DNA of 64,000 nt from Candidatus Thorarchaeota archaeon (GTDB lineage: Archaea > Asgardarchaeota > Thorarchaeia > Thorarchaeales > Thorarchaeaceae): assembly GCA_011364905.1 (NCBI GenBank), contig RDNZ01000003.1, positions 227 to 64,226 of the forward strand. Direction: 5' to 3'. Positions 14,383 through 30,116 of this stretch are shown piece after piece. The stretch's first letter is position 1; the number at the start of each line of letters is the position of its first letter. The translations under genes and the position numbers were made by a program. The notes below the pieces were generated by a model, which saw only the letters and a program-made list of their open reading frames with translations, made no database searches and had not been told where the DNA came from.

Positions 14383-15600
14383 CTATCCGAGTCCCATCAG
14401 ACTGATGAAGAGATCCTCTATATTGAGTACTTTGATGTTGACGTTTCGCTTTTTGACAGCATCAAGGAAGTTCAGCTTGCAGAAAACGCAGGAAGACACA
14501 ATCGTCGTGGCTCCTGTATCGAGTGCTTGATTCAACCGCCTTTCAGCCACATTGACTGCGTTCTCGCCAAATCCTGCTTTGAAACCGCCACCAGCACCGC
14601 AACAGACCGAGTTTTCCCTATTTCGTTCCATCTCAACGAATTCCATATCAGGAATACTCCTCAGGACCTCTCGCGGAGCTTCGAATACTCCAACATGGCG
14701 GCCCAGATGGCAAGGGTCATGATAGGTGACTCTTTCAGGGTAGCCACTTTTCCATTCGAGTTCTCCTTTCTTTATTTTGAGGGCGAGAAACTGGGTGAGG
14801 TGCTGCAATGAGAATGGTAGGATGCCATATCGTTCTCTATAGTACTTTGGCCAGTCTAGAGTAGTTGTACGATAGCATCCCGAACATGAGAAGACCAGAT
14901 GTTCGATACCTCGTTTTTCTATCTCCTCCACATTGTGCAGTATGAACTTCTCAACATCTAGATTACCAAGAAGCTCTTTGTCACCATCTTCTAGCTCTTC
15001 ATATATCGGGCGCGTGCATTGTCCTGTTCTGATGAGTGGACTGCAACAACAGTATTCGTCAGCGCCGAGGATCTGTGGTTCTATTCCGAAGTAATTAAGC
15101 ATACGTAACGTTGCATCAGCTATCTCTGGTCTCTTATAGGATGCAGTACATCCCACAAAATAGCCCCACTCAGAATCGTCAGATATCTTCGTGTCTGGCT
15201 TGACCCAATCGCCTCGTTTCAGTGGGTCTTCACCATAGACATTGTTGTGCTGAAACGCCATGTCTCCCATGACATGCAGCTTTCCGTATGGTCCCTTCCC
15301 CTCTTGCACAAGTTTCTTCCTGACATCCTCAATTATTCTGACATATGGGACCTTTATAGGACATCTTTCCACACATTGTTCACAGGTGCTGCACGCATAC
15401 ACTGCTCTAACAAAGCTGTCATCTATAGGCAGCTTCTTTTCTACATAGGAGCGTAAAAGCCGAAGTCTTCCGCCAGCAAAATATGCCTCGGAATGAAACT
15501 CCTCATAGCTAGTGCATGTCCATCTGCATGTTGAGCAATTACTGCACTTTACGATCATATCTGGGTCGACATCAAGTTCAGGTGTAAAGAATCTCCTCAT
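14383..15600 (-). CDS. CCG-domain Fe-S oxidoreductase (GlcF/GlpC/HdrD-like), cassette A
   Basis: 405 aa. Two ferredoxin motifs (CSNCSTCRWTC and CSTCEQCVERCP) and two CCG domains (GC..CCCSP..CSGC; HDPCHLGR..CCGAGGG..CVFC). Overlaps the upstream FAD gene by 4 nt. Confidence 0.85.
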   Translation of the reverse strand: MRRFFTPELDVDPDMIVKCSNCSTCRWTCTSYEEFHSEAYFAGGRLRLLRSYVEKKLPIDDSFVRAVYACSTCEQCVERCPIKVPYVRIIEDVRKKLVQEGKGPYGKLHVMGDMAFQHNNVYGEDPLKRGDWVKPDTKISDDSEWGYFVGCTASYKRPEIADATLRMLNYFGIEPQILGADEYCCCSPLIRTGQCTRPIYEELEDGDKELLGNLDVEKFILHNVEEIEKRGIEHLVFSCSGCYRTTTLDWPKYYRERYGILPFSLQHLTQFLALKIKKGELEWKSGYPERVTYHDPCHLGRHVGVFEAPREVLRSIPDMEFVEMERNRENSVCCGAGGGFKAGFGENAVNVAERRLNQALDTGATTIVSSCVFCKLNFLDAVKKRNVNIKVLNIEDLFISLMGLG

Positions 15601-17078
15601 CTTGACATCGCCTCCTGGTATGAAACTGGAATTTGAAGTATGTTCTTAGCGCGGCGAAGAACCACTTGCAATCTCCGGAAATACCCATTCATTGTAAACA
15701 TCAGATTCAGCCGAGTGTATGACATATTACATCGAGTCAGTTTATCTGGATTCATGAGTCCGTCTGGGTCCCATTTATTGCGTATTTCCTTGAACCGTTT
15801 GTAGTCATTCTTTTGATATCTCTTGATATACACTGTATTTTGAAGACCGAAGGTATAGAGCTCACCGCCGCCTCTATACATTGTCTTGACTAGCTTATGC
15901 AGCATTGATTTTCCTGACATGAAATGCATCCAATTTCGATGGTCTGATGGTGCAAAGACACAGAGTCGAGCCTTATTTGGCCTACCAAGAACGAGGTAGA
16001 AGCATGAATTGATCCGATATTTGCTAGCAATCTTGTACATGCGTTTTACGATTGGCCCAATATGGTCTAGTGGAATCCAGAAATTCTGCATAGATAGAGT
16101 GGGGACCTCAAGTTTAAGCTTCATCTCTACAATGAATCGGTCGTCCCAATTCTTTTCATAATAGGACTTCTGCATTTCCATGCCTTTCGCAACCTCAAAG
16201 ATGCCTCTTGCCGTCTTCAGCGATTCCTCAACCTCAGCTGTCTCTCCACTGTAGGTGACTAGAACAAAGAACAGTCCTGTTGTTTCTGGGGGCAAGCCGC
16301 CTTGAATACGCCACTCATACTCGAGATCTGTCAGCCTCAGGTAGATGGGTGGTGTCTTGGTTTTACTCAGTCGATTGACAGCATCAATTGCTCTCTCAAG
16401 GTCTTGAAAAGCAAACATCAGTCCCTCTGTAGTTTCAGGAACCGGGATGATCTTCATCTTGATTGAGGTCACAACTCCAGCAATTCCAACTGTCCCAAAA
16501 AAGGGGAGCATCTCATCTCCTGCCACTGTTTCAATTGTCCCATCTGGTCTTACAACCTCCATCTCAAACACGTTGTCAACCATTGAACCATACTTTGGTG
16601 TTCCAATACCAGCTTTTCCACCAATTGACAACCATCCTGCCAAAGTCGAAGCAACTCCACTCTGCGGTTTCACAGGAGTTGTAAATCCCTGTTTTGCCAA
16701 CTCGTTGTCCAGAATCTCCCAAACTGCTCCGGCTCCGACACGGACCCATCCCTCATCCTTGTTAATGTCCAAAATACAGTCCATTGATTTTGTGTCCACA
16801 ACGATTCCGCCTCTAGTGGGACTTGCAGATCCATAGTAGCACGTTCCACCCCCTCTAGCAACTATTGGGATCTTCTTCTTTGAAGCATATTTCAAGATTG
16901 ATGATACTTGCTCATTGGTCTTTGGCCAAGCAACATAATCTGCCAGCCATTTCTTTTTCCACCTGAAGTGATAATACGGTATACCCGTCGTGTCTCCACT
17001 TGCTGACAGGCGTTCGGACATGAGATCACTGATCCATGATACCTCAGACAACTTGGCGATTTGCTCTGTTTCACTCAT
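15597..17078 (-). CDS. GlcD-like FAD-linked oxidase/dehydrogenase (FAD_binding_4 family), cassette A, with a short amphipathic C-terminal tail
   Basis: 493 aa. IPIVARGGGTCYYG, GGIVVDT, AGWLSIGGKAGIGTPKYG, and a C-terminal ..WDPDGLMNPDK followed by about 45 extra residues. Confidence 0.85.
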   Translation of the reverse strand: MSETEQIAKLSEVSWISDLMSERLSASGDTTGIPYYHFRWKKKWLADYVAWPKTNEQVSSILKYASKKKIPIVARGGGTCYYGSASPTRGGIVVDTKSMDCILDINKDEGWVRVGAGAVWEILDNELAKQGFTTPVKPQSGVASTLAGWLSIGGKAGIGTPKYGSMVDNVFEMEVVRPDGTIETVAGDEMLPFFGTVGIAGVVTSIKMKIIPVPETTEGLMFAFQDLERAIDAVNRLSKTKTPPIYLRLTDLEYEWRIQGGLPPETTGLFFVLVTYSGETAEVEESLKTARGIFEVAKGMEMQKSYYEKNWDDRFIVEMKLKLEVPTLSMQNFWIPLDHIGPIVKRMYKIASKYRINSCFYLVLGRPNKARLCVFAPSDHRNWMHFMSGKSMLHKLVKTMYRGGGELYTFGLQNTVYIKRYQKNDYKRFKEIRNKWDPDGLMNPDKLTRCNMSYTRLNLMFTMNGYFRRLQVVLRRAKNILQIPVSYQEAMSR

Positions 17079-17090
17079 TCATACTCACCC

Positions 17091-17501
17091 CTAGGCTATG
17101 TACTGAATGTATCCAATGACGAAAACTATTGTCCAACATACTGCTGCGGTCAAGCCTGGAATTTTCGTTCTGATTCCTGAGATTCCCGTAAGAAATGCGC
17201 CAACTCCAGCTAGATAACCAATCACTCCCAATCCAATATGAATCAGGTGAAACAAGTCTGCAGCTCCAGCACTTAGCACGGTATTGGTGAGAGGCAGAAT
17301 CGCAACGACATTGACTGTTGTCAATAGTAAAGCAAGACCTGCACAGATACCATGAGTAAAGGTGTATTTTTCCCTGGAGATTTGGTATAGCAGCGTAGCT
17401 ATCCAAAGTAAGATTATCGCAGGAAGGCCTAGAATTATACTCAGGTGAATATCGCCAAACTGCAGAGCTTGAAATTGGCCGATTTGAATAGCGGTTGTCA
17501 C
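17091..17501 (-). CDS. 4-TM membrane protein with conserved histidines, homologous to the C-terminal half of the 28920-30116 protein
   Basis: 136 aa. GTG start preceded by AAGGAGGT. By eye, GLPAIILLWIATLLYQISREKYTFTHG aligns with GLPALILAYVGTALEYYDEERFTKIHG, and LFHLIHIGLGV aligns with FMHAWHVWLGI. Confidence 0.65.
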   Translation of the reverse strand: MTTAIQIGQFQALQFGDIHLSIILGLPAIILLWIATLLYQISREKYTFTHGICAGLALLLTTVNVVAILPLTNTVLSAGAADLFHLIHIGLGVIGYLAGVGAFLTGISGIRTKIPGLTAAVCWTIVFVIGYIQYIA

Positions 17502-17698
17502 TTAGATACCTCCTTGATATATAGTCTGTTTGTCCTGTTGGCTTGCACTATTTTTGGTCGATATACTCCTACTACAGACAGAAGTCCATATTGGACTCCA
17601 AGAAGGCGCGAGAGATCTATTGGCATGTTTTATGGAAGTGTGTTGATAGTTAACCACAGTCGTCACGCTTCTATCACATCCAACATCTCTCATCCTCT

Positions 17699-19420
17699 CT
17701 AATGGAAGATTTTCCTTCCTAGTCGCAAGAATGGTGTCCCTATGGAGAGCACAACTGTGATTGGTATTAGATTAACAAATTCAGTTGCAACATATCCCAC
17801 AAGGATTCCCACAATGAACCAGATTAAGAAACTAGTGAGATCATTTACCATTATCCATGGAACATAGGCTGCAAATATCGTAGGCACCAATAATCTAGCT
17901 ACCCAGATCACTATAGGGACCACAAGACCTGCAATAAACATGATTAGCAAATTCAATCGAGTACTAAGGACTAATGGTCCAGCAAAGACCTTGTGGGAGT
18001 TGAGATATCCCTTCTTGTCAGTCTTGTGTTTCAAGTTCGACATCTTTGCATAGTCCTCTTTACCATAGAAACTTCTCGAATGTGCCGCATTCCACATGCC
18101 AATTGAGTATGCCCTGCCGCCATGTTTCAAACCGAGATTGATCACATCTAAGGAACGGTACCATCCCATCAGGAATGAGATTTTTCGCCGCTCATCATCC
18201 GGAAACCATGTAAGGACAGCAACCTCTCCTCTGTCAGTAATTGCACCTTCTAGAGCGAAATCCTCATCCTTGAAATGACTGTTCATATGATCGATATAGC
18301 CATCTAAGTGGTCCAATGGGACATACACTTCAGAGGGAGCAAGACTTGGACCTAATCGTTTAATCCTCATGGGATAGAATCGCTCACTCCACTCATGTTC
18401 CGCAACTTCTCTTGGCTCAAGAGCCCCACTATGTCTACCGACTATATGTTCCAGCTTCTCCATCTCTGTCGCGATTTCATCATCGGTTCCTTCGAATGCG
18501 CATGAGATAACGAACTCCCCAGTTGTTGGAGGAGCTTTGTTCAACTCTTTGAGCATTCTATAAAACTTGTCAGTGATGAAATGCAGATAGAAAGGTCTTG
18601 TAGCCTCCAAGATGTCTTGAAGCGCTGCGACCATTAGGCTTTGGCTTCTAAACGAAGAAGTCGTCGGCATGATGTTTCTAAGTGGTATTATTTTCAGTAC
18701 AATATTAGTGATGATTCCGAGTGTTCCATTGCTCTCAAGGAACAGATGAGTTGAGTCTGGCTTGTACTGGATATCTTTGTCTACATCGCCATAAAAGGAA
18801 TCGCCACCCCCAAATCCCTTCCACTCAGTCTTGCTCATGAGGTCCTGCTCGGATGTATCCTTCGTTCGAATGACCTCGCCATTGGGGAGGACTACCTCAA
18901 GATCAACTACTTGTTCATTAACCCCTCCATACTTGGTGCTTCCGATGCCGCTTCCGCCGGCAGCGACCCAGCCCCCCACGGTACTCGAAGGTGCACTGGA
19001 AGGATAGGCACCAACTGTCAAACCTTCTTCCTCAAGGTCCTCAATAAGCTTACCCCAGATTATTCCAGAGCCCACCTCGACAGTCATGGCTTCCTTGTCG
19101 ATATTCAGGATTTTATTCATCCTGGTCATTTCGACAACCACACCCCCTCTAGTAGGCAAGGCTCCACCATACCCACTTGTGCCATGTCCTCGTGGAACGA
19201 CTGGGATATTATTTTCTTTGCAGTATTTCAAGAGGTTTGAAACAACTTCTGTTGTTGTCGGTTGAGCAATAGCATCAGCATGTGGATTGATGACATCATT
19301 AACGAGTCCAGGTAATGCAGCAATGTCACTTGAGTAGATGCTGGTCATAAAATCCTCTGAAGAGAAGAAGTCTTCACCCACGATGTCTGCAAGATTCTGA
19401 TTTTGTTTTTTTGAAATCAT
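17699..19420 (-). CDS. GlcD-like FAD-linked oxidase with a C-terminal 3-TM anchor, cassette B
   Basis: 573 aa. IPVVPRGHGTSGYGGALPTRGGVVVEM, YPSSAPSSTVGGWVAAGGSGIGSTKYG and YPMRIKRLGPSL. About 95 hydrophobic residues follow ..LNSHKVF. Confidence 0.85.
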   Translation of the reverse strand: MISKKQNQNLADIVGEDFFSSEDFMTSIYSSDIAALPGLVNDVINPHADAIAQPTTTEVVSNLLKYCKENNIPVVPRGHGTSGYGGALPTRGGVVVEMTRMNKILNIDKEAMTVEVGSGIIWGKLIEDLEEEGLTVGAYPSSAPSSTVGGWVAAGGSGIGSTKYGGVNEQVVDLEVVLPNGEVIRTKDTSEQDLMSKTEWKGFGGGDSFYGDVDKDIQYKPDSTHLFLESNGTLGIITNIVLKIIPLRNIMPTTSSFRSQSLMVAALQDILEATRPFYLHFITDKFYRMLKELNKAPPTTGEFVISCAFEGTDDEIATEMEKLEHIVGRHSGALEPREVAEHEWSERFYPMRIKRLGPSLAPSEVYVPLDHLDGYIDHMNSHFKDEDFALEGAITDRGEVAVLTWFPDDERRKISFLMGWYRSLDVINLGLKHGGRAYSIGMWNAAHSRSFYGKEDYAKMSNLKHKTDKKGYLNSHKVFAGPLVLSTRLNLLIMFIAGLVVPIVIWVARLLVPTIFAAYVPWIMVNDLTSFLIWFIVGILVGYVATEFVNLIPITVVLSIGTPFLRLGRKIFH

Positions 19421-19432
19421 TTACTCCACCAC

Positions 19433-20611
19433 CTATAGACCCAATGCCTCCACAACAATCTGAGATAGATCCTTGAACTCGATTGATGATTTTTGGTCCT
19501 CTATTCCATCTTTAAGCGACATAGTACAAGATGGGCACTCGCTTGCCAATATCTCGGCTCCAGTCTTCTCAGCTTCTTTAACCCGCCTTCCTGAAATCCT
19601 GACTGAGGGTATCGGATTTGTTCCCTTCAGCAATCCGCCACCACCACAACATCGAGCTTTGTTTCGATTATGTATCATCTCTTTCAGCTCAAGACCCGGT
19701 ATGGCATTTAATACCTCACGCGCCGGATTGTAGATGTTCTGATGTCTTCCCAATTCACAGGGATCATGCCAGGCTACTTTGTGGGGATATTTTTTAGTGA
19801 ACTTGATTTTTCCCTCCTTGAGTAGCCTAAGGACAAACTCAGAGAACGGTAGAAACTCAAGTCCCTCGGTTGCCTCTTTCCCAAGCAAGTGGGGATACTC
19901 TTCAGAAAATGCTCTGTGGCATCCTGGGCAGTTGAATACTACTGTCTTAACACCAAGATTCTTCAGAGCTTTGATATTATGCAATGCTAGTTCTTTGCCC
20001 TTGTCAAAACCACCAGCTACGAAGTACGGATTTCCACAACAGAACTCATCATCCCCGAGGATTGTGAAATCTACTCCCGCTGCATGCATGACTTTGATGG
20101 TATTTTCTCCCATGTGTGCTAATGTTCCCTTGAAAGATATATTGCAGCCTGCGAAATAGGCGACCTCTGCTTTAATTCCAATCCTGCCCTCCACCAAATC
20201 GTCGACCATGTCTGTCCAGAGTGTTCTATCAATTTGGTCCATTTCCATGATGTTTTGAGTCTGCTGGATGGAGTCATCGATATACTTGACAATCTCGGGC
20301 CATTCATCGAGATTCCCCACTTCTTGTCTGATCAGCTGCCAAAATCTAAGAAGTGGAATATTAGTCTGACATATCTCTTGACAGGCTCCACACAAGGTAC
20401 AGTAGAAAATCCTCTCTGCAAAATCGCGAGGAATTGGTTTATTCTCCTTGATCAACTTCCGCAGCTGAAACAGTTTGCCTCTGGGTGACTGAGAATCCCA
20501 AAGCTTGTCAAGATAAGCTGGGCAAACAAATGTGCAAAATCCACATTTTGCACACACTGTTGGTTCAATATCGAGCCCTTCATGTTTGAGGGCTTCGTAT
20601 AGATTTGTCAT
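19433..20611 (-). CDS. CCG-domain Fe-S oxidoreductase (GlcF/HdrD-like), cassette B
   Basis: 392 aa. CAKCGFCTFVCP, CTLCGACQEICQ, FCCGNPY..CPGCH, and HDPCELGR..CCGGGG..CPSC. Confidence 0.85.
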   Translation of the reverse strand: MTNLYEALKHEGLDIEPTVCAKCGFCTFVCPAYLDKLWDSQSPRGKLFQLRKLIKENKPIPRDFAERIFYCTLCGACQEICQTNIPLLRFWQLIRQEVGNLDEWPEIVKYIDDSIQQTQNIMEMDQIDRTLWTDMVDDLVEGRIGIKAEVAYFAGCNISFKGTLAHMGENTIKVMHAAGVDFTILGDDEFCCGNPYFVAGGFDKGKELALHNIKALKNLGVKTVVFNCPGCHRAFSEEYPHLLGKEATEGLEFLPFSEFVLRLLKEGKIKFTKKYPHKVAWHDPCELGRHQNIYNPAREVLNAIPGLELKEMIHNRNKARCCGGGGLLKGTNPIPSVRISGRRVKEAEKTGAEILASECPSCTMSLKDGIEDQKSSIEFKDLSQIVVEALGL

Positions 20612-20626
20612 TGTTGATTCTCCTTA

Positions 20627-21130
20627 TCATGGCCATGGAATTCCGATCCAGTCCAAGATTGGTTTCAAAATTGATGTGTGATATTCTAGTATTCCTCCAA
20701 GGGCGCCCATGATCATCATCAGTACGCCACCGACCATTATCACAATAGCATATGGGAAATAAGTGGAAGCATTGACCCATACCCTATCGCCAAGCTTTGT
20801 CCTAACAATCATGGCATAGAGAAAGATTTCAAGGGAAACAATGGACCATAGGATTTTGAAACGCAATTCTGGCGTCTGAATTATGATGTTAAGCGGATAT
20901 TCCGGCTCCATGAAACCAGTGATTACCCCAACAATCAGTCCAATGAAACCAATGATGCTTCCAACGTAGATAAAAACATCAAACTCGTGAAATATCTTTG
21001 CCAATCTAGTTCCGGGAGTGTTTATGTTATCCCTGAATAAGATCCGAAGTACAAGATTAATCAACGCCAAGGCCGCAGCGACTGTAAGGATTCCAGTGTG
21101 AAAGTGTACAAAAACAGGATGTATTGCCAT
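20627..21130 (-). CDS. DUF2231-like 4-TM membrane protein
   Basis: 167 aa. The N-terminal MAIHPVFVHFHTG matches the HPxxVHF start I associate with DUF2231 (from memory). It sits between the monohaem cytochrome and the CCG gene. Confidence 0.45.
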   Translation of the reverse strand: MAIHPVFVHFHTGILTVAAALALINLVLRILFRDNINTPGTRLAKIFHEFDVFIYVGSIIGFIGLIVGVITGFMEPEYPLNIIIQTPELRFKILWSIVSLEIFLYAMIVRTKLGDRVWVNASTYFPYAIVIMVGGVLMMIMGALGGILEYHTSILKPILDWIGIPWP

Positions 21131-21143
21131 TCATTCCACCTCT

Positions 21144-21725: not shown

Positions 21726-21787
21726 ATAATCGTCACCTATGTTTGGTTACATGTTGCATCTATAGAGCGATTCAAGGTAGTATCCAA

Positions 21788-21802: not shown

Positions 21803-21923
21803 ATATGTCTCGTATAAGAGCATATTGGTTAACCGAGTTTTCTGCGGTCCCAAGATGAACAGTGTTAGTATCTCTTCCATTATGCAACAGATACTTTTGT
21901 GAGCTAAACATTTACTTCAATCT

Positions 21924-23648
21924 TTACCTTCGCATGAGCTTGCTAAGGAAACGCAAAACTGGAATACCTACGGACAATGCTTGATTAATTGTCATGAAGT
22001 AGACGATTGAAAATCCAAGCAATCCTCCTAGCAAAGCCACCCAAATCAAAACAGGTACTGGTAGGAACTGAACCAGATTCGAGGACATTATCTGTGCCAA
22101 CCAAGTCCACCCTATAAGCTCGGGTCCAATCAAGCCCATTAGAAAAGCAATAGCAAATCCTGCTACGAAACCAAGTGATTTTGAAGCCCGTCCTGCAGTA
22201 ACTCTCCCCCCGAAAACCTTGACAGGATTCATGAGATTTCTTGGATCCAGTCTCTTCTTCATGATCTTGAGATTGTTGAATACCCTATCACCATAGTATT
22301 CTCTCGCATGCCGTCCATTCCAGAGACCCACTGCATAGGGAAGGCCACCAAACCGTTGAGCCAGAGCTGCAATTCTGAACGATCTTTGCCATCCTACGGT
22401 GAAAGAAAAACTCCTTCGTTCATCATCAAGAATCCATACCATAAAGGACGAGCTGTTGTCGTTGCTCATTGTACCCTCTATCGCTACATTTGAATTCCTA
22501 AGTTCGACTTTTGTTTTTTCGAGAATTTCTGGTAGCTTGTCCAAAGGCGCTAGCATCTCTGCGGGGACCAAACTTGGACCATAGCGTTTGATTCTCAGAG
22601 GATAGAGGCGTTCATTCCAATAGAACCACGCTCGTTTGTCATCAAGACGTATTCCATCCTCTTCTTCAGTGATGGTCTGAATTGCGGCGATGTTGTCTTC
22701 GTTGTTGTAAATTGTATCTAGAAGAGCCCCCATAAGAACATATTTTCCGTGTTCCAATTTGTTACCTGCAATGGCTCTCAATTTCGAGGTGTAGTTATCA
22801 GCAAGAAATCTTAGGAAGTAAGGCTGCGTATCATTTACCATCCTCGCAGCTGCATTTACTAGATCTTTCATTGAATCAAATGAACTCGCAAAAGGTACAA
22901 GTTGCAGATTAGGGATTGTCTTCAAAGTGACCTTCGTTATGATTCCAAGTGTTCCATAGGTACCTGTGAGTAGCTTTGTTTCTTTTTCTGGAGTTCCAAG
23001 ACCTGCGGCCTCAAGCTCCATCTCAAGCCATTTATTGGCTTTCGACGCTTCATCTTTAATATCATCAGTCTTTGGATCTAATAGAACTCTACCCAGTCTG
23101 ACGACCTTTCCATTTGGTAGGACTGCTTCTATTCCCAAGACTTGTTTCAAGATATCTCCATGGCGGGTGGATCCAATACCAAGTCCTCCACTTGCAACAA
23201 ATCCTCCAACTGTCGCAGCAGTAGCACTTGAGGGATAAACTGGCAAGGTATAGCCTAATCTCTCAAGGAACTCTAACAAGTTTCTCCATGTAATTCCTGA
23301 CTCTACAGTTACAGCTTGCTCAAACTCATTGAAGTACAAAACCCGCGACATACCTGAGAGGCCAATGCATATCCCTCCTCTGGTAGGAATCGAACCACCC
23401 CAACCAGATGTTCCGTTTCCCCGAGGTACTATCGGAATGTTGTTGTCAATCGCATAACCCACAAGATTTTGAAGCGATGGAACATCAACCGGTTGAGTCA
23501 CAACATCAAATTTTGGACTGACAATCTGATACGCTATATCCGGAAGACTCGTAACATCCTTTGAATATATCATACAGGTTTCATGAGTGATTGAGACATT
23601 GTCTGCCCCCACAATATCACCGATGTGTTGCTCGTCAACCTTCCGCAC
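21924..23648 (-). CDS. GlcD-like FAD-linked oxidase with a C-terminal 3-TM anchor, cassette C (start re-assigned)
   Basis: The ORF track extends to 23750. The first 34 codons overlap the upstream CCG gene and have no counterpart in the paralogs. An in-frame GTG at 23648-23646 gives VRKVDEQHIGDIVGADNV, which parallels MISKKQNQNLADIVGEDFF in cassette B. Motifs: IPIVPRGNGTSGWGGSIPTRGG, YPSSATAATVGGFVASGGLGIGSTRHG and YPLRIKRYGPSL. Confidence 0.8.
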   Translation of the reverse strand: MRKVDEQHIGDIVGADNVSITHETCMIYSKDVTSLPDIAYQIVSPKFDVVTQPVDVPSLQNLVGYAIDNNIPIVPRGNGTSGWGGSIPTRGGICIGLSGMSRVLYFNEFEQAVTVESGITWRNLLEFLERLGYTLPVYPSSATAATVGGFVASGGLGIGSTRHGDILKQVLGIEAVLPNGKVVRLGRVLLDPKTDDIKDEASKANKWLEMELEAAGLGTPEKETKLLTGTYGTLGIITKVTLKTIPNLQLVPFASSFDSMKDLVNAAARMVNDTQPYFLRFLADNYTSKLRAIAGNKLEHGKYVLMGALLDTIYNNEDNIAAIQTITEEEDGIRLDDKRAWFYWNERLYPLRIKRYGPSLVPAEMLAPLDKLPEILEKTKVELRNSNVAIEGTMSNDNSSSFMVWILDDERRSFSFTVGWQRSFRIAALAQRFGGLPYAVGLWNGRHAREYYGDRVFNNLKIMKKRLDPRNLMNPVKVFGGRVTAGRASKSLGFVAGFAIAFLMGLIGPELIGWTWLAQIMSSNLVQFLPVPVLIWVALLGGLLGFSIVYFMTINQALSVGIPVLRFLSKLMRR

Positions 23649-24834
23649 TCTTCTTGTCCTCCTCTTTTTTGGGCAAAAGGGACTCTGCAACAATTTGAGT
23701 GATATCTTGCACAGTAATATCGTATCCTGTTGTGAACTTTGCCAAGTCAAAAGCCAGAATGCATCGCGGGCATTCCGTGATTATTCGAGTGGCTGGAGTT
23801 ACAGTCGCATCTCTGAGTCGCATCTCAGCTATTCTAGATGAGAGAACTGGATCAACGACGTCCAAGAGTCCGTGGGCGCCACAGCATCTTGTGCTCTTCC
23901 TAGAAGGCATCATCTCCACATTGTACACACCCGGTATGTCTTCTATAACCTCTCGTGGCTCCTCGGTAGCTTTCAGAACTCTAGCTGAAATGCATGGGTC
24001 ATGGTAGGTAACTGTAACCATCGGTTGCTCTTCGAATTTTAGACGCCCCTCCCTAATCAACCGACTTATGAACTGCGAAGCTGTCAAGAGCTCCAAATCG
24101 TTTTCTTCTTTGAGATGTCTTTTATACTCAGACCAAGTCTGGATGCAGGATGGACAACTAAAGACAACGGTCTTTACTCCCAGGCTACGGATTAACTCTA
24201 GGTTTCTCTCAGCCATTTCGTTAATGCCTTCTAATTTTCCCGCCCACCCCAGAGGCGCTCCACAGCAAACCTCCTTTTCTCCGAGCAAGGTATAATCAAC
24301 GCCTGCATATTCCATTATCTTAATCATTGATCTTGCTACGTCATGCAGCTGCGATTTTAATGAAACATTGCATCCAAGAAAGTATGCTACATCGGCATGC
24401 TTCAAAATCCTGTCTGTGACTATTTCTTCAATCCCCTCCATCCAAAGAAGCCTATCTGCAGAGCCCATCCACATGATGTCTCCTCTCGATTCCAGAGAAT
24501 CCAACACAAACTGGGCGGGACGTGGCAAAAGCCCACGCTGTCTGGCCTCAGCTCGAGTGACTTCCCAGAACCGATCGAGACTGATCCCGGTAGTACAAAC
24601 CGATGTACAGTGTTCACAGAGAGTACAAAGGAAAATCTTGTTTGCGAAGTCTTGACCGAATTCTCCATCACCTTCGATTATGGATTTCATGATGTGAAGT
24701 TTTCCTCTCGGGCCATAGGACTCCCATTTTAGACTGCGAAAGACCGGACAAACAAGTGTGCAGTTTCCACATGAAGCACAGACATACGGTTCATTTTCCT
24801 GCGCATACCTCTCTAAGAAGTCCATTTTGGTCAT
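23635..24834 (-). CDS. CCG-domain Fe-S oxidoreductase (GlcF/HdrD-like), cassette C
   Basis: 399 aa. CASCGNCTLVCP, CTLCEHCTSVC, VCCGAPL..CPSC, and HDPCISAR..CCGAHG..CPRC. Confidence 0.85.
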   Translation of the reverse strand: MTKMDFLERYAQENEPYVCASCGNCTLVCPVFRSLKWESYGPRGKLHIMKSIIEGDGEFGQDFANKIFLCTLCEHCTSVCTTGISLDRFWEVTRAEARQRGLLPRPAQFVLDSLESRGDIMWMGSADRLLWMEGIEEIVTDRILKHADVAYFLGCNVSLKSQLHDVARSMIKIMEYAGVDYTLLGEKEVCCGAPLGWAGKLEGINEMAERNLELIRSLGVKTVVFSCPSCIQTWSEYKRHLKEENDLELLTASQFISRLIREGRLKFEEQPMVTVTYHDPCISARVLKATEEPREVIEDIPGVYNVEMMPSRKSTRCCGAHGLLDVVDPVLSSRIAEMRLRDATVTPATRIITECPRCILAFDLAKFTTGYDITVQDITQIVAESLLPKKEEDKKSAEG

Positions 24835-24938
24835 CTAAGGCTCACCATGGAATGATGACTGCTTCTGAATTGACTACGACATAGTATATAGTTATCCCAT
24901 TGGCTGTTTTTCTTGCCATCTGCAATTCCTATGTGGGT

Positions 24939-26276
24939 CTACTTCATATCGTGTATCATCTCTCCGGCACAAGCAATGCCGGATCTTGAGGCTGCTTCCA
25001 TTGATGCATAGTACATGCCACAATTTGCATATGCTCCTGCAACATAAAGTCCCTCTACGCCAGTCCGATTTGTCTTCAGACGCATATCCATGATTCCTGG
25101 TGGCTGTTTGAGAACCGACTTCCAGATTTTCCAGCTCTTTTTCCATGTGACCTTTTCCTTAACACCTGGAATTAGAATTTCTAGTTCATTAAGGATCTCA
25201 TCTGTTGCTTCTTCATCGCTCATTTTGAGCAGCTCTTTATCAATTCCAGTGACCGTCAGGAGAGATTCTCCAATAGGAGCTAATACACCGGAAACTCTCT
25301 TAGCTTCTGCAACGATGTTGATTTTTCTCTCTGGAACAAACGCGCCAACATTAAAATCAAGAACCCTCGATTTCAGTCCAAAGTATGCAACTGTGGAAGG
25401 TGCGTATTCGAAGTAGGCGGCCTTCTCAAGAAACTCCTTCGGCAAGTCGCTCTTTTTAACGAAGTGTGGCAACAAATCGATGGGAGTTGTAAGAACGACA
25501 GCATCTGTATCAAGGTGTTTGCTCTCTCCATCCTGTTCATAATCGACGCCAACAACTTTTCCATCTTCAATGATCACCTGGTTCACTGCGCAACTGACCT
25601 GGGGTTCGACGCCAAAGTTTCTCGCTTGCAGCATCAGAGTATATGCGACGCTACCAAGTCCACCACGTTCTGGGTACATCGCACTGAATCCGTCTTCATA
25701 TGCAAACCGGAGATGTTCGGAGTATAGATACTGTCCTGCAGAGACCTCATCAGGTTGCATGAAAGTGACAGTTTTGATTAAAGGCTCGTAAAAGTCTTGC
25801 TGGATATCTTCTGGAATGTTCTGGTCATCCGCATAATCCGAGAAGGTCATGCTATCCAGTTCCTTGAATTCCTCCTTAGACCTTTTGATGTTGTTCTGAA
25901 CTAGCATACCAAGTCTAGCTCTATCTGCGACTGGGAGTAGTCCGAATTTTGCGAGCTCAACTGCTGACTTGCGAATGATGTGCCGCTCGCCACCCTTAAG
26001 CCAGACTGCGCCTTCGCCTACGGTGGTCATTCTGACTCCGCTTCTCTCAAGAATAGGAATCAATGATTTGAAACCACCAACGAAGAAGTGCAATCCCTGA
26101 TCAAAGACGTACCCTGACTCAGTGTAAGACCTAGCACGTCCACCTACTGTCTTTTCTTTCTCCAAAATCGTGCATCGGGCTTTGAGACCTTTCAATTCCA
26201 GCGCGCAGCTGAATCCTGAAATCCCACCGCCAACGATTACGACACGAGTGCCTTTTTCTTTGCTCATAATTGACAA
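24939..26276 (-). CDS. FAD/NAD(P)-binding amine-oxidase / phytoene-desaturase-family oxidoreductase
   Basis: 445 aa. The N-terminal dinucleotide fold VVIVGGGISGFSCALEL..ILEKEKTVGGRA and the C-terminal GLYVAGAY are typical of the CrtI/HemY/amine-oxidase superfamily. Confidence 0.7.
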   Translation of the reverse strand: MSIMSKEKGTRVVIVGGGISGFSCALELKGLKARCTILEKEKTVGGRARSYTESGYVFDQGLHFFVGGFKSLIPILERSGVRMTTVGEGAVWLKGGERHIIRKSAVELAKFGLLPVADRARLGMLVQNNIKRSKEEFKELDSMTFSDYADDQNIPEDIQQDFYEPLIKTVTFMQPDEVSAGQYLYSEHLRFAYEDGFSAMYPERGGLGSVAYTLMLQARNFGVEPQVSCAVNQVIIEDGKVVGVDYEQDGESKHLDTDAVVLTTPIDLLPHFVKKSDLPKEFLEKAAYFEYAPSTVAYFGLKSRVLDFNVGAFVPERKINIVAEAKRVSGVLAPIGESLLTVTGIDKELLKMSDEEATDEILNELEILIPGVKEKVTWKKSWKIWKSVLKQPPGIMDMRLKTNRTGVEGLYVAGAYANCGMYYASMEAASRSGIACAGEMIHDMK

Positions 26277-26302
26277 TCTCCTTTTCTTCCTGTTAATTCT
26301 TC

Positions 26303-27427
26303 CTACTCCTCGACTTGTGATGCTTGGGCTTTATCAAGAATAAGCTCGTCGAGCTGAATCACTTCTAGATCAGTGTCCCTTGCGTTATAGCTTAAGTTCT
26401 TGTAGCAAGAGATACAGGTCGTGATAATTCCATCGACTCCTAATTCCTCTGCCTCTTTTACTCGTCGCCTTCCAACTGATTCTGAAAGATCAGGGTCTAG
26501 TACTGTGAGAAAACCACCACAACAGTTTGAGTTTGCGCGGTTGTTTTTCATCTCTACTAATTCGAGACCCGGAACTGCTTTGATAATCTCTCTTGGAGGC
26601 TCGTAGATACCAAGAGCTCTTCCTAAATGGCAGCTATCATGGAATGTGTATTTTCCTTCCATCTCTTCGAAAGTCAACACTCCATTACGGACCATGTCTG
26701 CTAAGACCTCAACAGTATGTAGAATCTTGATATCGAAGTTTGGTATGATCTTCGGGTAATGTTCAGCAAGCGTGCCATAGCACCCGCCGCAGCTAGTAAT
26801 TATGTGCTCAACGCCTGCCTTCTTGAACATCTCATAGTTCTTACGGACCACTCTCTCGAAGCCTTCGTCATCCCCTGCCCAGTAATTGAATAGACCACAA
26901 CAAACCTCGCTAGGGACATATCCTGCTTTTACACCCAATTTGTGAAGCATATCAACGACAGATTCAGGTTGATCTGGATACCAGAATGAACCCATGCAAC
27001 CTGAGAAGATTGCTGAGTTTGATTCAGGTGGTAGTTCCAAATCCTCAGCCCAAACAGTTCGGTCCTCTGATTCATATCCAATGAATGGGGTCCCTTCCTT
27101 TTCAATCCAGTCAAGCACTTTCTGAAGAGGTTCTGACATCTCTGCTCCAGTTCTCAGAAGCTGGCCCTTGGCTTGATGCCAGATGTCTGTTACAGGAACT
27201 CCAGCTGGACAGATTGCTTCACAACGTCGGCAGTCTGCGCAATAGAGTCTTTGCAGAAGCTCTGGCGGAGGATTCCTCATTTTAGTAGCGTAAGCTCGTA
27301 GAGCTCTAAGTTTTCCACCTGGACTATCCAGTTCAGACTTTAATTCAATGTACATTGGACAAGTGTCTCTGCAGTAGTTGCATGATCCGCAGTGTCGTAG
27401 TTCCTCTGCTAAGTTATCGATATTCAT
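26303..27427 (-). CDS. CCG-domain Fe-S oxidoreductase (GlcF/HdrD-like), cassette D
   Basis: 374 aa. CGSCNYCRDTCP, CADCRRCEAICP, VCCGLFN..CGGC, and HDSCHLGR..CCGGF..CISC. Confidence 0.85.
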   Translation of the reverse strand: MNIDNLAEELRHCGSCNYCRDTCPMYIELKSELDSPGGKLRALRAYATKMRNPPPELLQRLYCADCRRCEAICPAGVPVTDIWHQAKGQLLRTGAEMSEPLQKVLDWIEKEGTPFIGYESEDRTVWAEDLELPPESNSAIFSGCMGSFWYPDQPESVVDMLHKLGVKAGYVPSEVCCGLFNYWAGDDEGFERVVRKNYEMFKKAGVEHIITSCGGCYGTLAEHYPKIIPNFDIKILHTVEVLADMVRNGVLTFEEMEGKYTFHDSCHLGRALGIYEPPREIIKAVPGLELVEMKNNRANSNCCGGFLTVLDPDLSESVGRRRVKEAEELGVDGIITTCISCYKNLSYNARDTDLEVIQLDELILDKAQASQVEE

Positions 27428-27436
27428 TGTAACACC

Positions 27437-28930
27437 TCACTTCCCCACATATCTTGATAGCCTCCGGAACGCGGTGGCTAGTAAGAACAGAAAATCAATC
27501 CTCCTGAACGAAGTCATGCAGTCCGTCACTTTGTCTGGGTTCATGACTCCTTCGGGGTCCCACTTCGCTTTCGCTTCTTTCATTCTTGACAGACGATCAG
27601 GGTAGGCTCGTGACATATAGATTGAGTTCTGCAGTCCAATTGTGTATGGTCCACCACCCAGTTTGATGGCTTTCTTCATCATCTTATGAAGAATTCCCTT
27701 ACTCGCGATGAACTTCAGATAATGTTCTGCATCAATCATAGCCATTAACTCAAGTCGCATTTCCTCTGGTGTTCCAAGCATGCCAAACCAAAGGGCTGGG
27801 ATCTTATGTGATTCTCGATATGATTCGTAGGATGAAAGCATCTCATACACTTTGTCGATAGGCATCCAGAACTCCTGGAACATCAATGTTTCAGTATGTT
27901 CCTTTGGATTGAACTCAACATCATATCTGAGATCCCAATCCTTCTCTGAGAATTCATCTCCCAGGTAAGTACCATCATAGTTCCCTGTTATCGATTCTAA
28001 TTCACTAAGTGGAAGGAAATCTGGTTCATCGATATAGGTGACGGTGAGTACGTACCTGCCTTTTTCCATTGGATTACTGTACTTCTGCAATTCACTATCA
28101 GCGATATTGAGGTACAATGGCTTTTTCTCGAGTTTCGCCATTTCCATCATCGAGATGCAGAGTCTTTCTAAGTCATGAAAGCAGTAACTGAAAGTCTTGT
28201 ATCCACTTGGAATTTCATGTACTTTTAGAGTGGCCTCAACAATGATGCCCAGTATGCCATAGGATTGCAGAAACAGGTCAATATCATTGCCCTCAACGGT
28301 CTGGAGCTTACCATCGCTTCTCATCACCGACAGAGATGTTGTGTGCTCTCTGAGAGACCCGTAGAATGGTGTGCCAATCCCGCCTCTTCCTCCGCAAGCG
28401 ATCCACCCACCTATTACAGCAGACTTTGCACTTGAGGGGTAGATGCCCAAGGTCAATCCTTCCTTCTCGAGTTCATTCCCCAATCTTTCGAAAGTTACAC
28501 CAGGTTCTACTCGAACAAACATGGATTTTTTGTTGATCTCAATGACTTTATCCATAGTCTTCATGTCGAGTGATATGCCTCCATGCGTTGGGCTTGACGA
28601 ACCCATACAGCTCGAAGCACCCCCTCGCGGGATAATAGGCAACTTGTGCTGGTGTGCGACCTTTAGAACCTCTTGTATCTCATTCACGTTTTCAACCCGG
28701 ACAACATAATCTGCAAGGTATTTGCCTTTCCATCTATAGTGATACTGAGGAAGAGATGAAGGGTCTCCACTGTATACAACTCTCTCGAGCTCAGAATCTG
28801 AAACTCGTTCATCTCCAACAATCTCCTTGAGTTTGTCAAGTATTGAAACTTCCGTTGTGACTGGCGTAGGTTCTGGTTTGTTTGTAGTTTCTTGTTTCAT
28901 TTCGGCCATCTCAATCGCCTCACGGTACAA
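27437..28930 (-). CDS. GlcD-like FAD-linked oxidase, cassette D, with a short amphipathic C-terminal tail
   Basis: 497 aa. LPIIPRGGASSCMGSSSPTHGGISLDM and YPSSAKSAVIGGWIACGGRGGIGTPFYG; it ends ..WDPEGVMNPDKV plus about 30 residues. The first Met overlaps the upstream gene by 11 nt, and Met8 or Met11 are alternative starts. Confidence 0.85.
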   Translation of the reverse strand: MYREAIEMAEMKQETTNKPEPTPVTTEVSILDKLKEIVGDERVSDSELERVVYSGDPSSLPQYHYRWKGKYLADYVVRVENVNEIQEVLKVAHQHKLPIIPRGGASSCMGSSSPTHGGISLDMKTMDKVIEINKKSMFVRVEPGVTFERLGNELEKEGLTLGIYPSSAKSAVIGGWIACGGRGGIGTPFYGSLREHTTSLSVMRSDGKLQTVEGNDIDLFLQSYGILGIIVEATLKVHEIPSGYKTFSYCFHDLERLCISMMEMAKLEKKPLYLNIADSELQKYSNPMEKGRYVLTVTYIDEPDFLPLSELESITGNYDGTYLGDEFSEKDWDLRYDVEFNPKEHTETLMFQEFWMPIDKVYEMLSSYESYRESHKIPALWFGMLGTPEEMRLELMAMIDAEHYLKFIASKGILHKMMKKAIKLGGGPYTIGLQNSIYMSRAYPDRLSRMKEAKAKWDPEGVMNPDKVTDCMTSFRRIDFLFLLATAFRRLSRYVGK

Positions 28931-30116
28931 ATATCTCTCCCAGGTAGATCCCCATTATTCCTAGTATTGTCCAAAGCACCACAGCGGGTAATCCAAGGTT
29001 GCATGTCTTCCATCCACCGAGGTGTGTGATGAACGCTAGTGTTCCAAGAATCACGCTTATGATACCAAGCCACACATGCCAGGCATGCATGAATTGCAGC
29101 ATGTTACTAATGTTCACCAGATACGCAGGGTTCATGACACTCCAAGTTCCAGCAGGTTCCATAAAGAGACTAATGACGTTAATTGATGTCAAAATGTACG
29201 CCAAACCTAACATCATACCATGTATCTTGGTGAATCGCTCTTCATCATAGTATTCGAGGGCAGTCCCGACATAGGCGAGAATCAAGGCTGGTAAGCCAAT
29301 ATACCATCCATAGTGAAACTGAGGAAGAATCAGAGGCTGAACTGGAATCTGACCGACTGTGTACGAACCTATGCCACTCACAGACTCTCCGGCTGAGTTT
29401 CCAGCAACTATACGCCATTGTACTTCTACGTCCTTGCCTAGTCCCGGAATTTCGCCTGTGTACACATTAGCTTGTGTCGTTTCTGTCATGGAAATATTGG
29501 TCCAGCTTGCCCCAGAATCAGTACTGTATTGAAGTCTGACATAATCAACTCCAAGCGGTGATGTGACCTCGACCGTGACAGTGAATGGCTCTTGTGCCTT
29601 TGGAACATCAACACTTGTAGAGGGTTGTCCAATCGCAGGGCCTTCACCTGCTTGTGCTACATTGATAGTAATAGAATGGCTATCGCCATGAGGCGGATCT
29701 TGTACGGCATACACTGTGAGAGTATAGGTGCCAGCAAAACCTGGAGCAGTAATATTGTAAATTACGTGTATCACCTTAGAAGTAGCATCTAGATCCGAGG
29801 CATCGTTATCATCTACAAGTCCGTTCGGACTTGGATATACAATTGTGAATTGACCGTTGTCATCCACATCACTGGGTATTTTCAAAACGAAATTAGGTGG
29901 ACTTGCTTGTCCTGTGGCTTGCACATCCAACTGGAATGTCTGTCCTGAATCCACATCGATTGATGATGTCGCTGTAATCGCAATCCCAGTTGGATCATCG
30001 TGACAAACACTGCAATCGTTTTGGTCTGCAGGATTAGCCATCACATGTCCTGAGGCCAGAACAACCAACAAAAAGACTGAAGCAAGAACTATACCTATCT
30101 TGGTCCTTCGATTCAT
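28920..30116 (-). CDS. Fusion protein: exported monohaem c-type cytochrome + Ig-like domains + His-bearing 4-TM module
   Basis: 398 aa. Signal peptide ..LASGHVMA/NP, a single CSVCH (nt 30000-30014), about 220 aa of beta-rich sequence, then a C-terminal 130-aa membrane domain homologous to the 17091-17501 protein. Confidence 0.75.
   Translation of the reverse strand: MNRRTKIGIVLASVFLLVVLASGHVMANPADQNDCSVCHDDPTGIAITATSSIDVDSGQTFQLDVQATGQASPPNFVLKIPSDVDDNGQFTIVYPSPNGLVDDNDASDLDATSKVIHVIYNITAPGFAGTYTLTVYAVQDPPHGDSHSITINVAQAGEGPAIGQPSTSVDVPKAQEPFTVTVEVTSPLGVDYVRLQYSTDSGASWTNISMTETTQANVYTGEIPGLGKDVEVQWRIVAGNSAGESVSGIGSYTVGQIPVQPLILPQFHYGWYIGLPALILAYVGTALEYYDEERFTKIHGMMLGLAYILTSINVISLFMEPAGTWSVMNPAYLVNISNMLQFMHAWHVWLGIISVILGTLAFITHLGGWKTCNLGLPAVVLWTILGIMGIYLGEIFVP

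Follow-up and report, generated by a model that had tools for sequence, protein, structure and literature searches.

A tandem array of paralogous flavoprotein and HdrD-type iron-sulfur cassettes with putative haem-binding partners in Thorarchaeota

A 64,000-nucleotide stretch of contig RDNZ01000003.1 from a Candidatus Thorarchaeota archaeon (assembly GCA_011364905.1), referred to here in its full length as the window, contains an array of 13 consecutive genes at positions 14383-30116, all on the minus strand. The array consists of four cassettes (A to D), each with one VAO/GlcD-fold flavoprotein and one HdrD-type iron-sulfur (Fe-S) protein with CCG domains; a fifth pair, cassette E, lies elsewhere in the window. 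By class, the array encodes four flavoproteins with FAD_binding_4 and FAD-oxidase_C domains, four CCG proteins, a flavoprotein of the amine-oxidase family, two small membrane proteins with four helices, an anchored exported protein that has a single CxxCH motif, and one fusion of an exported domain to a four-helix module. An earlier note on this DNA, made from the sequence alone, had listed the same 13 genes and their domain content, and the open reading frame (ORF) listing and Pfam confirmed both gene by gene, with matching coordinates. The probable role of the cassettes is to link the cytoplasm, a membrane quinone, and the cell surface by electron transfer. In order of transcription, the genes of the array are as follows.

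28920-30116 (-): D_cyt4TM, signal peptide, N-terminal CxxCH motif (C35/C38/H39), two beta-sandwiches, and a C-terminal four-helix module with five invariant His
27437-28930 (-): D_FAD, type-1 VAO/GlcD-fold flavoprotein of 497 amino acids (aa), soluble (Pfam FAD_binding_4 and FAD-oxidase_C)
26303-27427 (-): D_CCG, HdrD-type Fe-S protein with two cubane and two CCG motifs (Pfam)
24939-26276 (-): D_AO, phytoene-desaturase/HpnE-like FAD protein (Pfam Amino_oxidase), 26 bp after D_CCG
23635-24834 (-): C_CCG, HdrD-type Fe-S protein (Pfam)
21924-23648 (-): C_FAD, type-2 flavoprotein with a C-terminal hydrophobic anchor (Pfam, hydropathy)
21144-21725 (-): B_cyt, signal peptide, CxxCH at residues 36-40, beta-rich domain, and a C-terminal transmembrane (TM) anchor followed by RRKK
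20627-21130 (-): B_DUF2231-like four-TM (4TM) protein with near-invariant H4, H9, H11, and H48
19433-20611 (-): B_CCG, HdrD-type Fe-S protein (Pfam)
17699-19420 (-): B_FAD, type-2 flavoprotein with a C-terminal hydrophobic anchor (Pfam, hydropathy)
17091-17501 (-): A_4TM, four-helix membrane protein of 136 aa with invariant H19, H50, H85, and H88
15597-17078 (-): A_FAD, type-1 flavoprotein of 493 aa (Pfam, PDB and profile alignments)
14383-15600 (-): A_CCG, HdrD-type Fe-S protein (Pfam), overlapping A_FAD by 4 bp

Genes within a cassette overlap or are 9-26 bp apart, and the gaps between cassettes are 83-213 bp. A scan of these gaps for TATA-like motifs gave no informative signal. The overlaps that the earlier note had placed at 15597-15600, 23635-23648, and 28920-28930 are real, given a start of C_FAD at the GTG codon at 23648. 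This start is ambiguous: the longest ORF begins at a TTG at 23750 and would overlap C_CCG by 116 bp, and GTG 23648 is the probable start, yielding a 574-aa product in line with the lengths of the orthologues (568-574 aa).

All-against-all blastp comparison of the paralogues gave identities of 24-41% (E 1e-33 to 1e-115), far above chance, with A_FAD and D_FAD 36% identical and B_CCG and C_CCG 41% identical. Two types of cassette can be distinguished. In type 1 (A and D), the order is 4TM membrane module, flavoprotein, CCG protein; in type 2 (B and C), the CCG gene precedes the flavoprotein gene, and the flavoprotein has a C-terminal TM anchor, with 2-4 hydrophobic segments in each C terminus by hydropathy analysis. 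A neighbour-joining tree, which was without bootstrap support, was used for coarse grouping only. Because each paralogue has its own orthologues in other genomes (45-93% identity), the cassettes are ancient and not assembly artefacts, in agreement with the old duplications proposed in the earlier note.

Flavoprotein and iron-sulfur subunits

All five flavoproteins (A to E) match FAD_binding_4 and FAD-oxidase_C above the Pfam gathering scores. The GlcD-like label given to them previously implied glycolate or D-lactate dehydrogenase chemistry, and the cassettes could then be canonical 2-hydroxyacid dehydrogenases (GlcD/GlcF or Dld-II, acting on glycolate, D-lactate, or 2-hydroxyglutarate) that feed the quinone pool, the paralogues differing by hydroxyacid. 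Among named models and structures, the highest-scoring matches to the FAD half are indeed GlcD, mouse LDHD, LctD, and glycolate oxidase; GlcF, GlpC, and LdhH are similar to the CCG half; and "HdrD/GlcD" pairs of other archaea have been proposed in the literature to oxidise lactate. However, all scores fall 3-10 fold under the curated cutoffs: the flavoproteins reached 128-160 bits against the glcD equivalog (TIGR00387, cutoff 567.9), 70-101 bits against PRK11230 (cutoff 897), and 58-77 bits against YdiJ (cutoff 1350). In single-sequence and profile alignments, the FAD-binding half aligned well to mouse LDHD and LctD, and the cap domain aligned weakly.

The reference residues of LDHD are H385, H392, E429, and H430 (positions in the mouse chain), and the reference motifs are GHxGDGNxH and GEHGxG. 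The metal-binding His-His-Glu triad was not found in any of the paralogues in profile or MAFFT alignments. Both His are replaced by residues of the Ala/Val/Leu type, and the Glu position is deleted in the MAFFT alignment and is Arg in type 2 by HMMER. Where the catalytic His would be, A-D have an invariant Tyr, and only E keeps the His. The same substitutions were present in all 19 of the 19 relatives sampled from outside the window when these were compared by anchored alignment. A strict regular expression (H.GDGN.H/GEHG.G) had no match in the relatives, a result that could have been a false negative, and the anchored alignment then confirmed the absence. The dehydrogenase chemistry implied in the earlier note is thus contradicted by scores (128-160 versus 568 bits) and active site alike, and we consider 2-hydroxyacid oxidation by these cassettes quite unlikely.

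The nearest relatives of the flavoproteins outside Thorarchaeota are single-chain proteins of 860-1037 aa that combine FAD, Fer4, and CCG domains (35-39% identity). Such fused FAD-FeS-CCG proteins occur in Thermincola, Desulfitobacterium, Chloroflexi, Methanoperedens, and Bathyarchaeia, and no curated name was assigned above cutoff in an NCBIfam scan of the fused bacterial and archaeal relatives. Because the fused relatives share with the Thorarchaeota flavoproteins both the active-site substitutions and the motif EWxERFYPMRIK, the Thorarchaeota pairs are, as judged from their sequences, split members of a widespread FAD-FeS-CCG subfamily that is unnamed by any curated model. The label "GlcD-like" fits the fold of these flavoproteins and not their chemistry.

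The CCG proteins of cassettes A-D have a Fer4_8 and two CCG domains in Pfam and are without a TM segment by hydropathy. The two CxxCxxCxxxC motifs and two CCG domains per protein described in the earlier note were recovered in A-D, and all eight Cys of the former are invariant among orthologues; in E_CCG, the first cubane motif is spaced differently (C18-x2-C21-x2-C24-x6-C31). All five paralogues have two CCG motifs of the form C-X31-39-CC-X35-36-CxxC, the HdrB/HdrD signature, with all five Cys (in B_CCG, for example, C156/C191-192/C228/C231 and C285/C321-322/C359/C362), and these Cys are invariant or near-invariant (at least 0.97) in 7-37 orthologues per paralogue. The 18 Cys of each CCG protein correspond to eight for two cubane clusters plus the two five-Cys CCG sets. 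All 18 are invariant in B_CCG (37 orthologues) and D_CCG (30 orthologues); 16 of the 18 conserved Cys are invariant in C_CCG (36 orthologues), with the other two at 0.97; and the 18 Cys of the Hdr pattern are invariant in the 16 orthologues of A_CCG, in which two further Cys are less conserved. The CCG proteins scored below the curated NCBIfam cutoffs for HdrB, DsrK, TfrB, GlpC, and GlcF, with the best hit to TfrB, a subunit of thiol:fumarate reductase.

The closest solved relative of B_CCG is EtfD (9ojn_A; E 2.9e-32). In the cryo-electron microscopy structure of mycobacterial EtfD (9ojn), an electron wire starts at a flavoprotein and runs via two clusters held by the CCG domains and two cubanes to a membrane haem b and menaquinone. 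EtfD (Rv0338c/MSMEG homologue) has two cubane motifs and two CCG domains homologous to those of the Thorarchaeota CCG proteins, but its CCG sites are remodelled to hold a linear [3Fe-4S] and a His-capped cluster, whereas the Thorarchaeota proteins keep the full Hdr-type Cys sets. The non-catalytic changes of EtfD (Thr for the second Cys and the capping His583 in CPHC) are absent, the Thorarchaeota sequences being CC and CPGC.

This pattern, present at Hdr spacing in both CCG motifs of all five paralogues, could mean that the cassettes work inward as Hdr-like reductases, in which electrons from quinol or extracellular donors, arriving via haem c and haem b, would reduce a cytoplasmic disulfide or polysulfide-type substrate at the CCG clusters, alongside the flavin site or in its place, as in HdrDE or DsrMK. 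The best NCBIfam match, TfrB, is in keeping with such a role, and the combination of membrane cytochrome, CCG protein, and outer-face cytochrome c mirrors DsrMKJOP, Tmc, and Hmc. However, GlcF, GlpC, and LutA-type proteins keep the Cys pattern with no known disulfide chemistry, no thiol-cofactor or DsrC-like gene was seen in the window, and a reductase of this kind would leave the constant VAO-type flavoprotein and its fusion to NuoB in cassette E unexplained. We regard it as unlikely.

Membrane and exported partners

Hydropathy analysis indicated four TM segments in A_4TM (17091-17501) and four in the C-terminal third of D_cyt4TM, and the two modules are 34% identical. Both keep H19, H50, H85, and H88 (H268, H299, H344, and H347 in D numbering), and D adds an invariant H365. 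In 91 sequences, C35, C38, and H39 of D_cyt4TM are invariant together with all five His (H268, H299, H344, H347, and H365), and M210 is invariant in 21 locus orthologues and conserved in at least 90% of the 91-sequence alignment. In the AF2 model of D_cyt4TM (pLDDT 87.7), a signal helix and two beta-sandwiches precede TM helices at 270-290, 292-319, 339-366, and 375-393, with H268 and H344/H347 at the outer ends of the bundle and H299 and H365 at the inner ends. The modelled arrangement would suit two stacked bis-His haems. In the AF2 model of A_4TM (pLDDT 84.6), three His are outer and only H50 is inner.

A_4TM belongs to no Pfam or NCBIfam family. Its own family is represented by 57 matches in 1.84 billion (1.84e9) representative proteins, and all four named members that were checked are Asgard; a word-index search that returned 64 matches for the 4TM family included one labelled Thermoplasmata. 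The isolated 4TM model had no significant match in Foldseek (best E 0.29, to the cytochrome oxidase subunit III bundle, with Dcytb at rank 44), and the full D_cyt4TM model had only Ig/FN3-like matches, which are uninformative on the membrane part.

The membrane protein of cassette B matches DUF2231 (PF09990) at 23.4 bits versus a gathering score of 26.4 (E 6.9e-5, 133 of 139 profile positions), and its H4, H9, H11, and H48 are near-invariant in 35 orthologues. No relation to the A/D 4TM family was detected by hhalign (probability 1.35%), and on this comparison the two membrane proteins appear unrelated. The His-rich membrane modules of the earlier note are of one family in A and D and of a different one in B.

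C36, C39, and H40 of B_cyt are invariant in 34 orthologues, which have no other invariant His or Met. B_cyt is 29% identical to the N-terminal domain of D_cyt4TM, and each has one CxxCH near the mature N terminus; neither exported domain matches a cytochrome family in Pfam or NCBIfam. Cytochrome f is also an exported beta-sandwich with a CxxCH near the mature N terminus and a C-terminal membrane anchor. B_cyt resembles it in architecture only, and no sequence or Foldseek match to it was seen. The earlier note had tied its interpretation to conserved ligands, and the His of the membrane modules and the CxxCH of the exported proteins proved invariant or near-invariant across homologues.

In Asgard relatives other than Thorarchaeota (P0305-P0357; L073:8001-8954), CxxCH usually lacks its first Cys and reads xxxCH or CxCH, and a few sequences are without either Cys. 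The N-terminal motif of these proteins, (C-x-x-)C-H-x-x-G-x-Y, retains the His and the downstream GxY. This pattern suggests haem ligation with a variable number of thioethers, and it could mean a single-thioether or non-covalent haem, or another ligand.

Conservation and surroundings of the array

An exact search of public assemblies for D_cyt4TM gave no match. The protein has 139 full-length homologues, and every named one is from Asgard archaea, overwhelmingly Thorarchaeota. A scan of species-representative genomes with the central gene of the array recovered 54 Asgard loci, and the next best matches, in bacteria, had ∼24% identity. The order D, C, B, (A,) ccmABCE recurs among the 54 annotated loci. 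Within cassettes, neighbours are kept in 13 of 14 to 35 of 35 assessable cases; C_FAD follows C_CCG in 31 of 31 loci, and D_AO follows D_CCG in 31 of 32. D_CCG is among the most conserved proteins of the array (72-93% identity across orthologues). Cassette A is missing from one group of genomes, in which B_FAD is followed by ccmA (10 of 30 loci); ccm genes directly follow cassette A in 6 of 13 loci. A complete genome in which the orthologue is only 48% identical has the same order, with the array abutting cassette E and the Nuo-like operon, and a metagenome-assembled genome (MAG) labelled "Hermodarchaeota" also has the gene order of the window array.

A distant Asgard MAG (locus L073) has a ∼317-aa relative of the 4TM family with an exported domain. 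Its gene overlaps by 4 bp the next one, for an A-type flavoprotein; the gene of an A-type CCG protein comes after that, and this independent unit is embedded among ccmF, ccmC, ccmB, and ccmA. The type-1 unit thus occurs outside Thorarchaeota as well, and there too it is tied to cytochrome c maturation. Conservation of the cassettes as units, which the earlier note had named as one way to check its proposal, was thus found across Thorarchaeota and, for type 1, in this MAG. The multiplication of cassettes, which the same note did not recognise as described, is not peculiar to the window and is an old, lineage-wide feature.

At three loci (L042, L045, and L048), a lone B-type flavoprotein without a CCG partner lies upstream of cassette A, beside genes for MenA, polyprenyl synthase, and GGR. 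One genome with such a lone gene, LCG1B.62, also has a separate D-C-B-ccm array (L032), which hints that B_FAD and cassette A came to adjoin in the window when two loci fused.

The surroundings of the array in the window contain the following features.

11630-14299 (-): ccmA, ccmB, ccmC, and ccmE (System I; Pfam), 83 bp downstream of cassette A
11630-12016 (-): CcmE, with the archaeal Cys-type CxxxY motif (CPSKY), not the bacterial HxxxY
30330-31835 (+): seven-haem c-type cytochrome with seven CxxCH (Pfam multihaem families), divergent from cassette D
34193-36307 (+): CcmF-like cytochrome c assembly protein (Pfam Cytochrom_C_asm)
36319-37620 (+): GGR-family (GGR/MenJ-like) reductase (Pfam; GG-red-SF above cutoff)
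37622-38677 (-): polyprenyl diphosphate synthase (Pfam)
38774-39853 (+): MenA-type aromatic prenyltransferase of the UbiA family (menA TIGR00751, 120 bits, cutoff 102)
39868-41635 (-): two PNPOx/PPOX-class flavoprotein genes (Pfam), one fused to a membrane-associated DUF7530
41679-42905 (-): E_CCG (Pfam)
43118-45058 (+): E_FAD::NuoB fusion (Pfam), a hydrophobic linker joining the GlcD-fold flavoprotein to NuoB
46373-58082 (+): complex-I-like operon of NuoA, J, K, C, D, H, I, N, L, M, N (Pfam)

Cassette E, mentioned in the earlier note, is thus located at 41679-42905 (-) and 43118-45058 (+). Its NuoB domain scores above cutoff with NF005012 (177.4 bits, cutoff 116) and TIGR01957 (167.8 bits, cutoff 142.7), and the Cys of the N2 cluster are present (GCCMVD, GQCVASGG, LPGCPP). 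Across Thorarchaeota the fusion keeps 71-90% identity; databases call it just NuoB, and its named matches are almost all Thorarchaeota, with one labelled Hodarchaeota. Among the Pfam matches and ORFs of the window, the complex-I-like operon has no NuoB besides that of the fusion and no NuoEFG, and the NiFe-ligand Cys are absent from its NuoD. Judged by this gene content, E_FAD::NuoB and E_CCG look like a novel electron-input module for complex I.

The seven-haem cytochrome adjoins D_cyt4TM in 10 distinct loci and has a C-terminal TM helix with an RRR tail. Its longest ORF probably starts too early, since an internal Met near residue 45 precedes a hydrophobic, signal-like segment. The gene between this one and the CcmF-like gene (31994-34171, +) encodes a protein of 725 aa that has a signal peptide but matches no family with confidence. 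It may act at the cell surface or as a partner of the cytochrome system. The ccmABCE/F genes, the seven-haem cytochrome gene, and the MenA-type gene are part of the same island and co-vary with the cassettes.

The position of type-1 or B cassettes beside ccmABCE in Thorarchaeota, and of the L073 unit between ccmF, ccmC, ccmB, and ccmA, would fit an accessory role in cytochrome c maturation, in which type-1 units deliver reductant across the membrane as an analogue of CcdA/DsbD-CcmG or of a CcmF haem-b reductase. No CcmG, CcmH, or CcdA gene was recognised by Pfam in the window, and the exported domain begins with a Cys-containing motif. However, the modules' own need for Ccm would explain the adjacency equally well, four to five paralogues and a complex-I fusion are unexpected for a maturation factor, and the residue that is invariant in relatives is the His and not the Cys pair, as fits a haem ligand rather than a redox-active dithiol. 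We give a maturation role hardly any credence.

Because the UbiA-family gene scores as MenA-type and lies beside genes for a polyprenyl synthase and a GGR/MenJ-like reductase, a prenyl-naphthoquinone carrier is suggested for Thorarchaeota on the basis of these assignments. The polyprenyl synthase and GGR genes could be housekeeping archaeal lipid genes; for the UbiA gene this was rejected, as its product scored above the menA cutoff and reached only 36 bits with the DGGGP synthase model. Affiliation of the cluster with methanophenazine-type loci of anaerobic methanotrophs (ANME) or Methanosarcinales, entertained from the prenyl genes, PNPOx, and multihaem cytochromes, was dropped because the homologues are from Thorarchaeota and the UbiA protein is MenA-type. 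In other genomes, MenA and polyprenyl synthase genes flank cassette A, and the prenyl genes are linked to cassettes A/E; at locus L017, the MenA-type gene lies inside cassette D, between D_CCG and D_AO. The PPOX-class pair, which matches the F420-dependent PPOX class of NCBIfam weakly and below cutoff, is always located between E_CCG and either cassette D or the MenA/UbiA gene in deep-branching Thorarchaeota.

D_AO was called amine-oxidase-like in the earlier note; the Pfam family (Amino_oxidase) stands, and its closer identity is phytoene-desaturase/HpnE-like (HpnE 118 bits, below cutoff; sole PDB relative the plant phytoene desaturase 5mog). It may belong with quinone or isoprenoid chemistry. 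The whole array could also serve isoprenoid or quinone tailoring, with the VAO flavoproteins and D_AO acting on the prenyl chain or head group of the membrane carrier or of lipids and the Fe-S and haem partners only supplying or removing electrons. Such a function would be in line with the neighbouring MenA-type, polyprenyl synthase, and GGR genes (including the MenA gene inside cassette D), with the solved relative of D_AO, with the membrane anchors of the B and C flavoproteins, and with the existence of VAO-fold enzymes that act on prenylated substrates (DprE1 and cytokinin dehydrogenase, seen as weaker matches). However, five paralogous pairs, exported c-type haem proteins, and a NuoB fusion are ill-suited to biosynthesis, the L073 unit has no prenyl genes within 8 kb, and the menaquinone pathways of the bacteria that carry fused relatives are ordinary ones. 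Tailoring appears very improbable.

Two further genes lie at or beyond the edges of the island. Small GTPase genes of the Ras/Roc/Arf family, typical Asgard eukaryotic-signature proteins, stand beside it both in the window (58105-58662, -) and in the distant MAG (L073:729-1694). A 680-aa EutA-like protein (ethanolamine ammonia-lyase reactivase) with an N-terminal extension of ∼200 aa is encoded beside a carboxylesterase at 2946-4988 (-) and is unrelated to the array.

Proposed electron path and its significance

The array is best interpreted, with somewhat more confidence than doubt, as four paralogous membrane-associated electron-transfer modules of the EtfD/HdrDE kind (five with cassette E) that would form the core of a respiratory or extracellular-electron-transfer island in Thorarchaeota. 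The cassettes are read as flavin-to-membrane modules because of the EtfD precedent and the logic of HdrDE and DsrMK. The core of each would be a cytoplasmic VAO-fold flavoprotein with an HdrD-type protein carrying two cubane [4Fe-4S] and two CCG cluster sites. Its partner would be a four-helix, tetra-His membrane protein in A; the same four-helix module, fused to an exported beta-sandwich domain with one haem c, in D; a DUF2231-like His-rich membrane protein and a separately anchored monohaem c protein in B; its own C-terminal anchor only in C; and NuoB of the NuoEFG-less complex I in E.

By analogy with EtfD, HdrDE, and DsrMK, we infer these cofactor occupancies and subunit contacts, and a path in which electrons would move between flavin, CCG clusters, cubane clusters, and membrane haem(s) b, in either direction. 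In A, C, and E, they would continue to a prenyl-naphthoquinone pool, in E via complex I; in B and D, they would pass through the membrane to an outer-face haem c and from it to the adjacent seven-haem cytochrome. We favour the outward direction, in which the cell would rid itself of cytoplasmic reducing equivalents. The Hdr-like, tailoring, and maturation alternatives appear less parsimonious than such electron-transfer modules.

Several observations weigh against this interpretation. The canonical catalytic residues are missing from the flavoproteins (E keeps the catalytic His), and both CCG sites retain the full catalytic Hdr pattern, which is compatible with a disulfide-type reaction there. 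Among known haem proteins, none is significantly related to the 4TM module in sequence or fold, and for that reason haem b binding is argued from His conservation. In A_4TM and in the DUF2231-like protein, a single conserved His lies on the side inferred to be the inner one. The exported domains are beta-sandwiches and not class I cytochrome c folds, and the first Cys of CxxCH is usually lost, and sometimes both, in relatives outside Thorarchaeota.

The proposed modules can be compared with several known systems. EtfD is one polypeptide with a five-helix NarI-like domain and a single haem b and takes ETF as its flavoprotein partner, whereas the Thorarchaeota modules have separate subunits, an unrelated four-helix His module, and a VAO-fold flavoprotein, sometimes with an exported haem c domain. 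HdrDE, DsrMK(JOP), TmcABCD, and HmcA-F likewise place an HdrD-like CCG protein on a His-rich membrane subunit, some with outer c-type haems, and the TmcB, HmcF, and DsrK models match the Thorarchaeota CCG proteins with scores far below cutoffs. However, the Thorarchaeota membrane subunits are unlike NarI, HdrE, and DsrM in Pfam and Foldseek tests, the VAO-fold flavoprotein is obligatory, and the c-type proteins are monohaem beta-sandwiches. GlcDEF, Dld-II, YdiJ, and LDHD/LctD have in common with them the flavoprotein fold and the partnership of FAD and CCG proteins, but differ in the metal triad, the catalytic His (replaced in A-D), and the cap domain, which is divergent in Thorarchaeota, and their model cutoffs were widely missed.

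"Fpo-associated HdrD/GlcD" proteins have been proposed from genomes of Bathyarchaeia, Methanomethylicia, Korarchaeia, and Methanomassiliicoccales, together with an Fpo/Nuo-like complex that lacks the usual input module. The 899-aa fusion of Bathyarchaeia is a near relative with the same active-site substitutions, and the lactate:heterodisulfide role proposed for these proteins would fit poorly with the missing catalytic residues. The Thorarchaeota system differs in the fusion of the flavoprotein to NuoB and in four more paralogous units with haem-type partners.

FAD and CCG pairs, widespread as single fused proteins, and complexes of CCG proteins with cytochrome b (and c) are therefore of known kinds. 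Several features are new: a fourfold tandem array conserved in an Asgard class, His-rich membrane partners of two unrelated families (one of them new), monohaem proteins built as beta-sandwiches, and a covalent fusion of flavoprotein and NuoB. A literature search found no published description of the array, its membrane partners, the beta-sandwich monohaem proteins, the FAD::NuoB fusion, or c-type chains in Thorarchaeota. The label "glycolate oxidase" or "FAD-binding oxidoreductase" is attached in databases to members of the FAD-FeS-CCG subfamily despite their missing catalytic residues, and the subfamily has members in Firmicutes that are named species and not MAGs, Thermincola and Desulfitobacterium among them.

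In published reconstructions, the Thor, Sif, and Loki lineages have a complex I that lacks NuoEFG and has no assigned donor, together with "an unidentified terminal electron acceptor," and published Asgard models place cytochrome c chains only in Heimdallarchaeia. The island offers candidates for both ends. E_FAD fused to NuoB, with its HdrD-like partner E_CCG, is a concrete candidate for the missing electron input of complex I, and the haem b/haem c modules with the multihaem cytochrome and Ccm form a candidate exit route for electrons. A more specific possibility, which we put forward tentatively and consider doubtful as yet, is a lineage-specific Thorarchaeota conduit in which novel VAO/HdrD-like dehydrogenases pass electrons through a tetra-/penta-His four-helix haem module to monohaem c and seven-haem surface cytochromes for extracellular or interspecies transfer, with E replacing NuoEFG as the input of a quinone-reducing complex I. 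Thorarchaeota are regarded as fermentative or acetogenic organisms without a cytochrome-based chain, and the array, if the proposed function is true, points otherwise. Of all known relatives, Asgard archaea stand closest to the lineage of the eukaryotic host, and how they dispose of reductant is central to syntrophy-based models of eukaryogenesis.

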